Shown: positions 13,712 to 21,413 of the stretch, one piece after another
How the letters are laid out: each line of letters starts with the position of its first letter
Position numbering within the stretch: the first letter of the stretch is position 1
IMG/VR virus record: IMGVR_UViG_3300025429_000002
Coordinates: 1-45,620 of that record
Length of the DNA: 45,620 nucleotides
Source of the DNA: a virus
Taxonomy: Duplodnaviria > Caudoviricetes
Reading direction: 5' to 3' (one strand)
Notes under the pieces: generated by a model
Told to the model about the DNA's origin: nothing
Databases searched by the model: none
Seen by the model: only the letters and a program-made list of their open reading frames with translations
Program-made: the position numbers and the translations under genes

Positions 13712-14083
13712 TTATTCCTTAATATTTGAAAAATTGCTTAAATAATCTATTGCTGTTTGTAATATATTTATATTATCTTTAAATTTACCAAGTCCATGAT
13801 TGCAATGTGTACAAAGTAACCCTCTAACTTTTTTAGTAACATGACAGTGATCTACAGCTAATTGGCGAATGTTTCCACTTCTTTTATCAATAGCTGTTTC
13901 TGGCTGTTTACAGATAGCACATAGACCTTTTTGATTTTCAAACATTTGTTTAAATTCATCACGTGTAATACCGTATCTATAAACTAATTGCCATTCATTA
14001 TCGTACTGTTTTCGTTTTTCTTTGTTTTTTTCGTACCATTTTTTCCATTGAGCTGCTGCTTTAATTTTGTCACGAGTAGACAT
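13712..14083 (-). CDS. Endonuclease VII-family HNH nuclease, probable homing endonuclease
   Basis: YGIT..Q.GLCAIC..LAVDHCH..VRGLLC..CN.GLG.FKD; ATG at 14083 preferred over TTG at 14110. Confidence 0.88.
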   Translation of the reverse strand: MSTRDKIKAAAQWKKWYEKNKEKRKQYDNEWQLVYRYGITRDEFKQMFENQKGLCAICKQPETAIDKRSGNIRQLAVDHCHVTKKVRGLLCTHCNHGLGKFKDNINILQTAIDYLSNFSNIKE

Positions 14084-14084
14084 A

Positions 14085-14912
14085 TTAATCCCAATCGTAA
14101 TCCGCAACATACTGCTCTCTAGTCATCAACCCTTGTTTTGTGAATCGGTCACATGCTGCTTTTGCTTCAGGTGGCAAACTGTTGTAAGACTTCTTACCAC
14201 CAGTTACCGGTCTTGTGTTTGTACTAGATGTACCTTCCATTGGATTTGGTGTCTTTTTCTTACCAAACTTTTCAGGAATCATTTCAGCTAGTTCTTCATC
14301 TAATTTCTTTAAGAAAGCTTCACCGATTAGGGAAGGATTCTCACGACGAAGTTCAACTCCAAGGCTGTTAGCTACTGCAGTCATTTTTGTATCTTTACCA
14401 AACCAGTCGTTACGGTCAATCCATGCGTTAAGCATTGGGTCTTCTGTAATCTGTGGCGTAGCCTTAGCTGCTTCTTCTGCTTTTTTAACTTCTGCCTTTG
14501 CTTCAAGACGCTCTTCTTTAATAGCATCCATTGCATCGTCAATCGCTAAAACTCGATCACCGTCACCAGTGTTGATTGCATCACGTTTAGCCATTTTCAA
14601 TTGTTCTAGTTGAGTTTCAAGATCTTTACTCTTACGCTCATACTGTTCTTTTTGAAACTGTTTAAACTCTAGTGCAGCTTCACGAGCCTCATTAGCAGCT
14701 TTTTTTGCTTCAGCTAATTCTTTAAGCAATTTCTCATTGTTCTTACGTAAGATTGGCATAATCTCTCTACCACGACGTACAAACGTCTCAGCATCAACCC
14801 AATCATTCTCAGAACCTCTAAAATCATCCTTTGGTACCCAACCTTGTGCTTTCGCTTCGGATTCGTACTCAGGAGCTTCTTGCTGTTGCTCTACTACCTG
14901 TTCATCGCTCAT
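14085..14912 (-). CDS. Capsid scaffolding protein
   Basis: E/K/A-rich coiled coil, W..RN.WF motif, between portal and capsid genes. Confidence 0.75.
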   Translation of the reverse strand: MSDEQVVEQQQEAPEYESEAKAQGWVPKDDFRGSENDWVDAETFVRRGREIMPILRKNNEKLLKELAEAKKAANEAREAALEFKQFQKEQYERKSKDLETQLEQLKMAKRDAINTGDGDRVLAIDDAMDAIKEERLEAKAEVKKAEEAAKATPQITEDPMLNAWIDRNDWFGKDTKMTAVANSLGVELRRENPSLIGEAFLKKLDEELAEMIPEKFGKKKTPNPMEGTSSTNTRPVTGGKKSYNSLPPEAKAACDRFTKQGLMTREQYVADYDWD

Positions 14913-15253
14913 TACTTTAATCCCTTAGTTAAATGTGGATCTACTAAATCCATATCATCATCTAGCTTACCTGTCAAATCATCGTAGTTCACCATACGGT
15001 AGCCTTTTTTATCTTTACCGGTATACATTAAACCTGCATACTTAGCAAAAATAACTTTATCGCCTACTGCCACAATACCTGCTGGAATTTCTTCGCCTAG
15101 TGCTACAATCTGACCTGTAGTGTTTGCTAACTGTTCTCTTTCGGAAGCTTCTTCAGTGTTTAACTGAAAACCCCATTCTGTTTTTTCAACTACCTGTAAC
15201 GGTAGAATTAAAACTCTGTCAAAGATTGGTGTTATTCCTGATGGATTAATCAT
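14912..15253 (-). CDS. GroES-like co-chaperonin
   Basis: PIFDRVLI..GQIVALG..VGDKVIFAKYAG Cpn10 signature. Confidence 0.85.
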   Translation of the reverse strand: MINPSGITPIFDRVLILPLQVVEKTEWGFQLNTEEASEREQLANTTGQIVALGEEIPAGIVAVGDKVIFAKYAGLMYTGKDKKGYRMVNYDDLTGKLDDDMDLVDPHLTKGLK

Positions 15254-17528: not shown

Positions 17529-19046
17529 CTAGTATCCGGTTGTTCCGTTTCGACCTATTTCGTCGTATCCATATTCATGTAAGGCAAACCTGTACTCTTC
17601 GTCCTCTAGTTCTTTTGGTGTAGCTGCTTCCATCATTTTGTCGATCATCAAACCTATATAAGCCCAGGCGTCAACCTGATCATCATGACGGTCACGAGGA
17701 AACCTCAACAGCTCATCCTTAAACACTTGGAACCAATCGCTATGTGTATCAAACTTTACACCACCCGCTCTCATTCGTGCTTGCATACTACGTGCTCTAC
17801 TTAGTTTATCTCCGCTAGGCTTAAGCAGAATTAAATTAACAAAAACACCAGTTTTAAGCATCGCTTCTTTTAAGTAGGGTCCGATACTCTTTTCAATTGT
17901 TCCAACTTCAAGGCCGAAGAGTTCTGGTTCGTAAGTTCGCTGTAACGCTAAAATGGTATCAACAATCTGTTTAGCATCCATCCTATCACGGATTACGTTT
18001 ACGCATTGCAAACGATTCTGATCGTCCATTCCAGCTACAGCGAATACAGTATAATCACTATGTTGCCTTTGACTAATCGCTAAGTCAGCAGCAATATAAT
18101 AATTCAATTTTACTTTTCTATCTTCATCTTTAAGTGGTACAAAATCACTGTCTTTAAAGAATCCATTTGCATCATCAAGAGGAATATTCAACATCTCCTG
18201 ACTATACGCATCAGCAAGACCTTGCATGATGTATTGGTTCTTACGCTCTATTAGAGACTGCTTATTCCATCTGTCTGGCCATAAGATGCTATTAAAGTCA
18301 TCTGTATGGGCACGGTACTTAATTGATGTCCAAGGTGTCTTATAACTTGTAAACTGTTTTAAATCTTGTGTGATTAAGTGTTTAAGACCTTTAGAACCTA
18401 ATGCAGCAAGTTGTGACTCAGGCATTAATCGTTCTAAGAGTGAGTCTAAGTGTAAGATGGTACCTACGATTCTAATCTTACCGGTCACTGACAAACAAGG
18501 TATCAATGCTGAGTAGAACCACCTACGAAACTTCTCACGTCTTTCTTTATTCAGAACCTGTTCATCAGATTCCATATCATCACAGATAATTAAATCAGGT
18601 CTTCGGTTTAACCATTTAAGACCACGAAGCTTTTGTTCTGAACCTTTAGCTTGGATACGAAAAACAAATCCATCACTGAATTTACATATTATATCATCTT
18701 CTGTAGACTTTGTAAACTCTATGTCACCAAATAATCCATGTATGTCTTCGTTATCTCTTAACTCTTTAATTACATCACCCAAGAACAATCCAGCTTGAGA
18801 AAATGAATCTGAGACAATTAACACATAACGAGACTTACGAAACAACACCTCAGCTAACAAATACGCATACGTTACTGCTGTAGACTTACCATGTCCACGT
18901 GGTGCCGCTATAGCAACAAACTTATCCTGGTGGCAACAGTAACGCCACAACTCACGATGGAACTCAGGAGTCTCTGTAGCTTGGTCATAGTTCTTGACAA
19001 GACAGGCATTACTGAATCCTTCGATAACATCACTGGTTAATTCCAT
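17529..19046 (-). CDS. terL: Terminase large subunit
   Basis: Walker A APRGHGKST, Walker B IICDD, nuclease motifs AADLA and HDDQVDA. Confidence 0.95.
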   Translation of the reverse strand: MELTSDVIEGFSNACLVKNYDQATETPEFHRELWRYCCHQDKFVAIAAPRGHGKSTAVTYAYLLAEVLFRKSRYVLIVSDSFSQAGLFLGDVIKELRDNEDIHGLFGDIEFTKSTEDDIICKFSDGFVFRIQAKGSEQKLRGLKWLNRRPDLIICDDMESDEQVLNKERREKFRRWFYSALIPCLSVTGKIRIVGTILHLDSLLERLMPESQLAALGSKGLKHLITQDLKQFTSYKTPWTSIKYRAHTDDFNSILWPDRWNKQSLIERKNQYIMQGLADAYSQEMLNIPLDDANGFFKDSDFVPLKDEDRKVKLNYYIAADLAISQRQHSDYTVFAVAGMDDQNRLQCVNVIRDRMDAKQIVDTILALQRTYEPELFGLEVGTIEKSIGPYLKEAMLKTGVFVNLILLKPSGDKLSRARSMQARMRAGGVKFDTHSDWFQVFKDELLRFPRDRHDDQVDAWAYIGLMIDKMMEAATPKELEDEEYRFALHEYGYDEIGRNGTTGY

Positions 19047-19573
19047 TATATTTCTTCATGCTCTATAACCTTGGGCTTTGGTGTAACATCTTTAGCTTTA
19101 GCAAACCTAGCAAACTCATCTGCCAGTTTAGCAAGTCTGTCATCAACAGTCTTTTCAATTTGTTCTTGCATCGGTTGTTGGCGTAGTATTTCTCTACGAT
19201 CCATCAAGTCTGCAGTGGCCTTCATTGAATCTCTCAGGTTTACTGGAACTCGAACATTCCCACCTGTCTTTGGATCATATTGGAAGTTACCGTTGTCTAG
19301 TCTATCCTCCACCACAGCTAATGCTTTATTAACGATCTTACTGAGCCTACCGTCTAGTGCAAGTGTTTCTTCAGAACGTATCTGAAGCACCAACTCTTTC
19401 CACCAATCGGTATAACGCCATCTGACTATAGTGTCCTTCGGGATACCTGTCGCTGCTGCCGTCAATGGTAACGATCCAAGAGCCAGCCAAGTTGTCACTG
19501 CTTCGATCTTCTGAGCTTCGCTCCACCACTTCCCGCTTGCCTTTAAGTCTCTCTTTTTTCGTCTTCTTGGCAT
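19046..19573 (-). CDS. terS: Terminase small subunit
   Basis: N-terminal HTH (TAAATGIPKDTIVRW); overlaps the terL start. Confidence 0.75.
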   Translation of the reverse strand: MPRRRKKRDLKASGKWWSEAQKIEAVTTWLALGSLPLTAAATGIPKDTIVRWRYTDWWKELVLQIRSEETLALDGRLSKIVNKALAVVEDRLDNGNFQYDPKTGGNVRVPVNLRDSMKATADLMDRREILRQQPMQEQIEKTVDDRLAKLADEFARFAKAKDVTPKPKVIEHEEI

Positions 19574-19603: not shown

Positions 19604-19632
19604 ATTATATCATATAAGTTTAAATTTGTCAA
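19604..19632 (-). promoter_or_regulatory. Sigma70 promoter of the packaging/structural arm
   Basis: TTGACA-N17-TATAAT with TG extension; upstream AATAAT shared with the 11594-11622 promoter. Confidence 0.88.
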
Positions 19633-19665
19633 GTATTATTTTATAGAGGGGACATAAAAAACTTC

Positions 19666-19694
19666 TTGACAAAAGATAAAAAATGTGCTATTAT
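19666..19694 (+). promoter_or_regulatory. Divergent sigma70 promoter facing the non-coding region
   Basis: TTGACA-N17-TATTAT with TGn extension. Confidence 0.75.
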
Positions 19695-19819: not shown

Positions 19820-20078
19820 GCTTCGTGCACATATTGTAATTATTTTAAAGTGTATTCACTATTCTTGAATAAAGAATGTCTCAGTGCTTCTCAGCACATC
19901 GTAGGCTACCCTACCCTCAACTTGTAATTTAAAATCAATACAGAGCTGTTTAGAGCCTCTGGTGAGCATTTTAGACCTGTCTAGACCCTACCCCCTATTC
20001 TAAAAATTATGCCAGCGTTAAAAATAGCGTTATATATATTTATAAAGAATTCTTTTTGCCCCTCCCCAGCCCTAGTTA

Positions 20079-20326
20079 GTAAGCACTTACTTCCTATACA
20101 GGTTAGTGAGTACTTACTTACATCTATACAGGCGAAGTGAACACTCACTTACTTAGTAGTGACTCTGTCCCTTATACTTGTTAGTGTGTCCTTACTTACT
20201 AGGCTACTCTGTCCCTGCACCATGTCAGTGCATATTACTAAAAGTTATATAAGTTGTTGTTTTTAGACAACAAAGTAGTAAGGCGTAACGCAACCGTATA
20301 AAATCAATAAGTTAGCATGCACTTAC
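20079..20326. promoter_or_regulatory. Cluster of five SlmA-binding-site-like 12-mers
   Basis: GTAAGCACTTAC 20079, GTGAGTACTTAC 20106, GTGAACACTCAC 20137, GTGTGTCCTTAC 20184, GCATGCACTTAC 20315; E. coli SBS consensus is GTGAGTACTCAC. Confidence 0.6.
20302..20314 (+). promoter_or_regulatory. IHF binding site
   Basis: AATCAATAAGTTA matches WATCAANNNNTTR exactly. Confidence 0.55.
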
Positions 20327-20349
20327 ACTACACCATTTAACTATCTAAA

Positions 20350-20421
20350 TGATAATGATTCTCACTTGTATTTGATTAGTTATTGAGAATGATTCTCACT
20401 TGTAAACGATAACGATTCTCA
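20350..20421. promoter_or_regulatory. Three Fur boxes
   Basis: TGATAATGATTCTCA 20350, TGAGAATGATTCTCA 20384, CGATAACGATTCTCA 20407; fit the 7-1-7 consensus TGATAATnATTATCA. Confidence 0.75.
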
Positions 20422-20524
20422 TTTAAAGCACTGTTGTATTTTGACAACATAGGGTTTGTCCCTATAGTTTTTTTGTTGCATATCTATAAAATAGAATCAT
20501 CAACACAAAAAAGGAGCTTTAAAA

Positions 20525-20680
20525 ATGAAAACATTTAAACAGTTAAACCGTACAGCAATAAGAGAAGCAATTAAAAATGATATTCTTTTTACTTGGTATC
20601 AAAGAGAAGGAGAGTTAAAGCATGGTAGTGCAATTGTTTTAGCTATAGCATCGAGAACGCCATTTTCATACATTAAATAA
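20525..20680 (+). CDS. First early protein, 51 aa
   Basis: AAGGAG RBS; MKTFKQLNRTAIREAIKNDILFTWYQREGELKHG... Confidence 0.7.
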   Translation: MKTFKQLNRTAIREAIKNDILFTWYQREGELKHGSAIVLAIASRTPFSYIK

Positions 20681-20693
20681 GAGAGGATATATC

Positions 20694-21413
20694 ATGTTTA
20701 TTAGAAAACAATTACTAGGTTTTAACACCAACGCTAAAACAATCAAAGGAGAAAAGATCGGTTATTATACCGGCATTCTATATCTTGCTCCAAGTGATAT
20801 CTCCGGCTTTCAAGTATGCCCCTTAGCTAAATTGGCACAATGTGAGAAAGCCTGTTTATATACATCGGGAAGAGGGGCGTTTAATTCTATCCAACATGCT
20901 AGAATTGAGAAAACAAAATACTTTTTTAATGATCGTAACAATTTTATGATCAATATCTTTAAAGATATTGAAAAGGGTATTAAGAAAGCTAAACAATTAA
21001 ATCAAGAGTTATTGATTAGATTAAATGGTACAAGTGATATTAAATGGGAAAATGTATCATTTGAATATAACGGGATCACTTATGACAATATTATGAGTGC
21101 ATTTCCTACTGTTCAATTTTATGATTATACTAAAATACCGAATAGGGTTAACTTACCGAAAAATTATGATTTAACATTCTCTTATTCTGGCGTTATTAGT
21201 TTTCAAAAGTACGTTACAAAAGCAATTGAGAATAAAAACCGTATCGCTGTTGTTTTTAGGTATGAGAGAGACATTCCTAAAATGTTCAAGGGTTTAAATG
21301 TAATCGGAGGAGATAATTCAGACGTGCGGCATATTGAGGATAAAAATATTATTGTCGCATTGTATGCTAAGGGTAAAGCTATCAAGGATACTTCCGGCTT
21401 TGTTGTCAATTAA
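20694..21413 (+). CDS. GP88-family protein (three-Cys, Fe-S/radical-SAM-like)
   Basis: VCP....C...CLYTSGRG, IRLNGTSD, QFYDYTK, LTFSYS motifs. Confidence 0.75.
   Translation: MFIRKQLLGFNTNAKTIKGEKIGYYTGILYLAPSDISGFQVCPLAKLAQCEKACLYTSGRGAFNSIQHARIEKTKYFFNDRNNFMINIFKDIEKGIKKAKQLNQELLIRLNGTSDIKWENVSFEYNGITYDNIMSAFPTVQFYDYTKIPNRVNLPKNYDLTFSYSGVISFQKYVTKAIENKNRIAVVFRYERDIPKMFKGLNVIGGDNSDVRHIEDKNIIVALYAKGKAIKDTSGFVVN

Follow-up and report, generated by a model that had tools for sequence, protein, structure and literature searches.

The 45,620-nucleotide stretch of viral DNA analysed here (the window) was assembled as a circle and represents a podovirus-type phage genome of 45.6 kb. Between a conserved block and the early genes lies a gene-free leader of ~450 bases, crowded with short sequences that resemble binding sites of bacterial proteins. 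What purpose could such an accumulation of sites serve at this position?

The leader lies between two divergent arms

The genes of the window form two divergent arms, with terL, terS and the portal gene oriented leftward from 19573 and small early genes running rightward from 20525. A T7-type primase-helicase and polymerase are encoded; no RNA polymerase match was found among the window genes and no regulator-type Pfam domain in the early proteins (28 scanned). Pfam and PHROG searches with the likely terS (19046-19573) were without a match, and its name comes from structural comparison, in which the top Atlas match may be terS's own cluster. The sequence occurs in freshwater metagenomes. The closest cultured terL is that of Alcaligenes phage QDWS535 (53%), and the top polymerase matches are pelagiphages (45%). 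The features of the locus are as follows.

17529-19046, minus strand: terminase large subunit, terL (phrog_38, E 1e-77)
19046-19573, minus strand: likely terminase small subunit, terS (nearest Atlas clusters so named, TM 0.76-0.82)
19604-19632, minus strand: sigma-70-type promoter toward terS (consensus match 12/12)
19666-19694, plus strand: sigma-70-type promoter toward the conserved block (match 11/12)
19984-20068, unstranded: conserved ~85-bp block bounded by C-tracts, likely a direct terminal repeat
20079-20195, unstranded: SlmA-type array (perfect sites at 20079 and 20106, degenerate ones at 20137 and 20184)
20159-20216, plus strand: 11-mer repeat in two copies (20162, 20206), no protein assigned
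20216-20232, unstranded: NtrC-type site (named by likeness to the consensus)
20255-20272, unstranded: dyad A copy 1, a 6-N6-6 palindrome whose regulator is likely a host protein
20302-20314, plus strand: oriented IHF-type site (named by likeness to the consensus)
20350-20421, unstranded: three Fur boxes (20350, 20384, 20407)
20432-20449, unstranded: dyad A copy 2, which holds the -35 hexamer of the early promoter
20441-20468, plus strand: first early sigma-70-type promoter (match 11/12)
20449-20465, unstranded: dyad B, which spans the spacer and the -10 of that promoter and also scores as terminator-like
20525-21413, plus strand: first early genes, a 51-aa ORF and GP88 (20694-21413)

Endonuclease VII-like and GroES-like genes lie within the head module (13712-15253). 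QDWS535 also carries GroES, after its portal gene, and the GroES search gave no plasmid match. The 51-aa first early ORF is absent from a co-occurring variant, whose joint falls at 20522-20694.

Operator-like sites occupy half of the leader

Called sites occupy 214 of 401 leader bases. The motif cluster described in the original prediction is real, and all classes of site lie where they had been placed. The three Fur boxes have no equal in quality in the other 45.1 kb; they are 15-bp 7-1-7 palindromes with 1-3 mismatches to the consensus. Both copies of TGTTGT-N6-ACAACA (dyad A) are exact and occur nowhere else in the window, and the single IHF site at 20302 is one of two exact window matches. 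ATAGGG-N5-CCCTAT (dyad B) is present at 20449-20465, and the word said to be repeated at 20162 and 20206 is an 11-mer found at both. The names IHF, NtrC, LexA, parS and Fur follow general consensus sequences. The count of five SlmA-like sites was too high: scored by the base rules in the accessible part of PMC3020112, the sites at 20079 and 20106 are perfect, those at 20137 and 20184 miss a critical base, and 20315 is a half-site. With at most one mismatch, all three SlmA-type matches of the window fall inside the leader.

Three elements had been overlooked, namely the NtrC-type site at 20216-20232, a T-N11-A-type dyad at ~20235-20249 and the conserved block. The NtrC-type dyad itself is present, and no -24/-12 (sigma-54) element was seen by eye downstream of it. 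Dyad A is not the PhaR motif; HexR and RegA sites are possible look-alikes. We also discarded a structured-RNA reading of the leader: its fold z of -3.5 is what DNA palindromes give, and a search of Rfam returned no family at gathering score (best match 25.6 vs 90 bits).

In the within-window shuffle test only second and later copies count, because the sites were drawn from the leader itself; the comparison with relatives is the independent test. Palindromes are as dense on the terS side (190 vs 129 shuffled) as in the leaders (181 vs 115), so that their density by itself does not set the leader apart.

A conserved block precedes the leader

The ~85-bp block was found in 30 of 38 close loci (terL 78-100% identical); in the remaining loci the sequence stops inside or before the block, or the block is a variant. 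Across 190 pairs from 20 non-redundant loci, the block had a median identity of 0.81, the terS side reached 0.59 and the leader 0.56, with shuffled sequence at 0.53. Contigs of co-occurring relatives align to the window only from 19981-19984 to 20053-20066.

The genome ends of LUZ24, tf and PaP3 are arranged like this part of the window: terS is followed by promoters, a short direct repeat that starts with a C-run, a leader devoid of genes, sigma-70 promoters and the early genes (PMC3517423; NC_010325, NC_017971), and in the accessible part of PMC3517423 the mapped left end of tf begins with a C-run, like the block of the window. A short block that starts with a C-run and lies between terS and the early genes is found here too. 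Since gene order and C-run start are shared with LUZ24 and tf, the block is likely a terminal repeat by analogy with these phages. The terminases of LUZ24 and the window have no detectable similarity. The data examined for termini, from 8 of 24 listed runs, all consist of contigs and contain no pile-ups of starts or ends, and the putative position of the virion ends comes from gene order and C-tract likeness.

Several short repeats surround the block. A six-letter G-rich word stands forward on the terS side (19649-19654), ahead of the promoter at 19666-19694, and inverted within the leader (20166, 20210), as in many relatives. Mirror symmetry about the block is seen for one short word. C-rich repeats with a period of 4-6 bp occur in the window at 19909, 19986 and 20060 and in the first 80 bases past the block in relatives. 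KOPS-like octamers on the minus strand follow directly after the block (27 in 14 of 20 leaders) and are indistinguishable from simple 5-bp C-rich repeats. The C-rich repeats also include a Chi-like word; the Chi reading was dropped, as the accessible parts of the literature examined hold no established betaproteobacterial Chi. In L018 and L015, the first third of the block is tandemly triplicated upstream of the block end, and three LexA-type boxes with an 18-bp period follow.

Site types recur in relatives whose leaders do not align

The original prediction had named motif enrichment in the equivalent regions of related phages as a check, and Fur, IHF, NtrC, SdhR and SlmA-type sites do recur there. 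From 27 leaders of at least 450 bases, 20 non-redundant ones were retained and 4 short ones were excluded; as relatives, these leaders are not independent samples. The comparison covers 9.6 kb of leaders and 8 kb of the terS side. Fur gave 16 matches in 9 of the 20 leaders (shuffle mean 1.2), with 5 on the terS side. All other classes gave none on the terS side: IHF had 15 matches in 14 leaders (shuffle mean 0.6), NtrC 9 in 9 (0.1), SdhR 5 in 5 (0.1), SlmA 5 in 3 (0.3), dyad A 25 in 8 (0.1) and dyad B 15 in 11 (0.5). The 11-mer repeat occurs in 6 of the 20. No enrichment in these close leaders was seen for LexA, DnaA, FNR, CRP, ArgR, NrdR or matS. The SdhR motif was used as printed in the accessible part of PMC4494728; the site is absent from the window's own leader.

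In more distant leaders (terL 46-55%), an IHF-type site is present in 13 of 17 and never on the terS side. Most of these leaders hold the IHF-type site alone, with other classes sporadic. Its orientation is the same in 27 of 31 cases. One distant leader, L050 (55% terL identity), combines Fur with an SlmA-type array of four copies, and two others, L044 and L074, contain DnaA boxes.

The leader sequences cannot be aligned, yet the site types recur, and which of them is amplified differs by lineage. The SlmA-type site is multiplied in the window and L050, dyad A in L009, L013 and L021 (5-7 copies), Fur in L026 (four), the LexA-type site in L018 (three), DnaA boxes in L044 and L074, the SdhR-type site in L133 (five) and the parS-type site in QDWS535. 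One type can thus stand where a relative has another. The distance to the nearest predicted promoter is variable, and for most sites it falls between 100 and 350 bp. A further 15-bp dyad, absent from the window, is found in the leaders of L009, L013, L021, L022 and L033 (20 matches in 8 of 20); it looks IclR-like.

Similar arrays occur in unrelated phages

A one-site scan with the SlmA-type motif found 120 viral loci; the 80 among the matches listed comprise 62 non-redundant loci, almost all unrelated to the window phage, and only 1 of the 80 shares its terS. Within this same set of listed matches, 51 of the 62 loci lie outside ORFs and 27 have further SlmA-type copies. Other classes gather close to these 62 sites, with counts near versus further out of 13 and 1 for Fur, 15 and 0 for DnaA, 9 and 2 for LexA-type, 8 and 0 for NtrC and 10 and 2 for dyad A; for IHF the nearby count was 24, against a shuffle background of 14. 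A scan with dyad A gave 119 loci, 78 of them non-redundant. In 33 of these dyad A recurs within 300 bases; an SlmA-type site is present in 6 and SdhR-type repeats in 6.

A terminase gene lies beside the array in 17 of 31 loci, which had been picked for bearing arrays, and the large subunits belong to at least three families. In four loci (L267, L305, L326 and L332) a C-tract is followed by mixed arrays and then a promoter. L305 also contains DnaA boxes, and L326 and L332, which are unrelated to the window phage, both carry the NtrC-type site three times in tandem as well as the 11-mer repeat.

For cultured phages, the leaders were inspected by eye and searched with a single class of site. Matches to the Fur triple lie in terminal regions of T5-like phages, Muenster and Vibrio phage 355E48.1 as well. 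In Muenster, whose ends are mapped, a Fur run lies in the first 1.3 kb. In tf, also with mapped ends, LexA-type boxes stand at 96, 131 and 259, that is three in the first 275 bases, with one in the next 2.7 kb.

Individual loci showed further combinations. In the injection-stop region of the T5-like phage Kenya-K37 (L112:1110-1370, at the terminal repeat end), DnaA boxes precede a run of roughly five Fur-type boxes. A parS-type palindrome lies in the gene-free leaders of apparently lytic phages, at L081:47931-47946 (QDWS535) and in L182, L207, L224 and L267. A gene-free stretch of Limnohabitans phage DC31 (L108:5492-6424) holds five DnaA boxes, an SdhR-like core, a dyad B-like box and repeated TetR-like dyads. 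In L121, L151, L152, L161 and L169, dyad A stands between RegA-like dyads, directly beside an ArdC-type anti-restriction gene.

The sites resemble operators of host proteins

In the original prediction the leader was a landing pad for host proteins. The resemblance to host operators is borne out by a Fur matrix, the context of dyad A and the SlmA helix, and the clusters are kept in relatives; binding itself is predicted from sequence.

The Fur matrix was built solely from the phage Fur-type sites. Applied to a 373-kb Comamonas replicon, it placed its top three hits upstream of a siderophore ABC transporter gene and two TonB-dependent receptor genes. Because its top score there equals, and does not exceed, that of the best control obtained by shuffling, the evidence lies in the context of the genes. 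None of the remaining eight phage-derived matrices scored above control in this one Burkholderiales replicon, which is a fraction of a genome and of another genus. The recognition helix of SlmA is identical in E. coli and Comamonas, which may not be the host. An exact copy of dyad A adjoins DUF3576 in 5 of 80 metagenome loci among the matches listed, opposite a porin gene in 3, so dyad A also sits in a bacterial porin/DUF3576 intergenic region, a context we take to be alphaproteobacterial.

The SdhR, SlmA, NtrC and LexA-type sites, together with the terL of QDWS535 (53%), suggest that the host is a betaproteobacterium. The DUF3576/porin context of dyad A and the pelagiphage polymerase matches point away from such a host. 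A terL scan of named genomes returned 2 loci and was uninformative in this respect.

Possible functions of the array

We tentatively favour the explanation that the leader is an occupancy array, which would coat the leading DNA before phage proteins exist; we would place its probability somewhat below even. Sites that are one-sided, factors that are interchangeable across unrelated signals and copies that are amplified fit a selection that favours bound protein in itself and acts on DNA present in the cell while host proteins are the only ones there. By analogy with T7- and T5-type phages, the early-side end would enter first. The IHF, NtrC, SdhR, SlmA and dyad A sites are absent from the terS side and present in leaders, and several of the putative binders are chromosome-handling proteins, not signal regulators. 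Several observations count against a coat: the polarity suits DNA that is last packaged equally well as DNA that is first in, Fur sites do occur on the terS side (5 in 8 kb), LexA, DnaA, FNR, CRP, ArgR, NrdR and matS show no enrichment in the close leaders, most distant leaders hold the IHF-type site alone, and eight of the nine phage-derived matrices gave nothing above control in the Comamonas replicon.

Regulation of the first promoter is a rather unlikely alternative in our estimate. Here regulators would repress or activate this promoter and so time the lytic start to iron, nitrogen, damage or the cell cycle, a scheme put forward for CtrA sites ('lytic deferment'). Dyad A copy 2 and dyad B do overlap its -35 and -10 elements (20441-20468), 20-90 bp upstream of it are the Fur boxes, and one LexA-type box of tf abuts a promoter-like hexamer; moreover, CtrA sites cluster in terminal repeats or gaps and regulate phage genes, according to the accessible part of PMC9437464. 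This control by host state sits poorly with regulators of unrelated signals being swapped between close relatives, with most sites being promoter-distal at variable distance, with a single site in 5-7 tandem copies, more than repression needs, and with the same slot being filled by parS, DnaA and SlmA arrays. In CtrA-type deferment one host regulator acts on phage promoters, whereas the leaders carry many interchangeable, mostly promoter-distal site types. With two boxes lying on the first early promoter, the array may nevertheless serve ordinary regulation in part, and these boxes likely also tune early transcription.

IHF bends DNA for terminase at lambda cos, and the array could likewise be a packaging or replication element at the concatemer junction, where bound proteins would brake the motor ahead of the final cut or help to duplicate the repeat, or DnaA boxes would start host-driven replication. 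Arrays adjoin terminase genes, no site is better conserved than the IHF-type one, which is also oriented, the polarity fits packaging as well as a coat, the short word is mirror-symmetric about the block, and DnaA boxes are found in L044, L074 and L305. We still regard such an element as unlikely: the phage has proteins of its own at hand late in infection, when scarce regulators would be spread thinly over many genomes, the sites vary too much between leaders for a precise terminase signal, and a primase-helicase and polymerase are encoded by the phage itself. Replicated genomes might instead titrate Fur, SdhR, NtrC or a porin regulator as a DNA sponge and de-repress host uptake and metabolism. 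Such titration would work without polarity, whereas the terS side, just as free of genes, holds almost no sites, and the IHF, parS and DnaA sites are left unexplained; we find the sponge improbable, even with near-consensus sites in several copies and with iron, nitrogen and TCA regulators that would suit an oligotrophic host, given the freshwater occurrence. The SlmA arrays (27 of the 62 loci from the 80 of 120 among the matches listed), the parS-type sites and the KOPS-like octamers (27 in 14 of 20 leaders) evoke a positioning or division block, with SlmA, ParB and FtsK sites tethering the incoming genome or halting septation. This is the most doubtful of the explanations, because SlmA-type sites are found in just 3 of 20 close leaders, so that it fits only some lineages, and the KOPS-like words do not differ recognisably from plain C-rich repeats of 5 bp.

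An occupancy array could work as follows. With the conserved block as terminal repeat, the leader would lie just inside the left genome end, and Fur, IHF, SlmA, NtrC and others would bind the entering DNA within seconds. IHF would fold the leader into a compact complex, which might slow end-resecting helicase-nucleases of the AddAB or RecBCD type and prevent the DNA from sliding back before host RNA polymerase has engaged at the 20441 promoter. Selection would act on the amount of bound protein, not on one signal. Against this mechanism, RecBCD is able to evict many bound proteins, and capsid pressure can push the first 500 bp in without a ratchet. Proteins bound at DNA ends are used to block nucleases in extracts, as cited for Ku and scCro in the accessible part of PMC8169995, and DNA ends are targeted by several defences (accessible parts of PMC12904381 and bioRxiv 2025.08.30.673261).

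The original prediction had proposed much the same, with the leader as the first DNA to enter and host proteins as ratchet or shield, or with the sites as a sponge for regulators. In its support, the clusters are kept in kin and in unrelated phages, and by gene order their place is that of the mapped termini of LUZ24 and tf; a weak point is the two boxes on the promoter, which may be regulation. It is possible, with a likelihood that we again place somewhat below even, that many unrelated lytic phages have converged on an 'end coat', a plug-and-play cassette of host operators on the first-entering DNA that serves as shield and anchor, and that the DnaA-plus-Fur run of T5-like phages is the same device acting as injection stop.

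Relation to known systems

An occupancy array would bear on how linear phage DNA survives its first seconds in the cell, before inhibitors can be made, and on which host factor brings about the T5 injection stop. The cultured phages T5, tf, LUZ24 and QDWS535 allow a direct test of the cassette idea, and the site vocabulary could serve host prediction and the marking of genome ends in uncultured phages.

Clusters of CtrA sites in alphaproteobacterial phages resemble the array in that sites for a host regulator lie at the ends or in the gap between divergent arms, with independent origins and fast turnover. They involve one regulator and are read as promoter control in the accessible part of PMC9437464, whereas the window leader holds sites for many interchangeable, unrelated factors, including non-regulators. 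The DnaA boxes of the T5 injection stop likewise lie in a non-coding region of the terminal repeat and are proposed to bind a host protein during entry; unlike the window leader, they lie ~9 kb inside a long repeat and are proposed to halt entry (bioRxiv 10.1101/866236, accessible part). Fur has no whole-word mention in the accessible text of that preprint. These two are single-factor precedents. We found no description of an interchangeable multi-factor operator cassette in the openly accessible literature searched. The array is real and widespread, a variation on the way in which phage ends recruit host operators, and a new function is plausible for it.

For LUZ24, tf and PaP3, whose terminases are not detectably related to those of the window, the accessible part of PMC3517423 describes no leader operators. 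The Spo0A and parS sites of phi29, as summarised in the accessible part of PMC9437464, are alike in recruiting host DNA-binding proteins in cis. In phi29 and at lambda cos the factors are fixed and have one defined job, whereas the window leader is a variable array. The IHF site at lambda cos is itself a case of a host protein recruited to a phage genome in cis.
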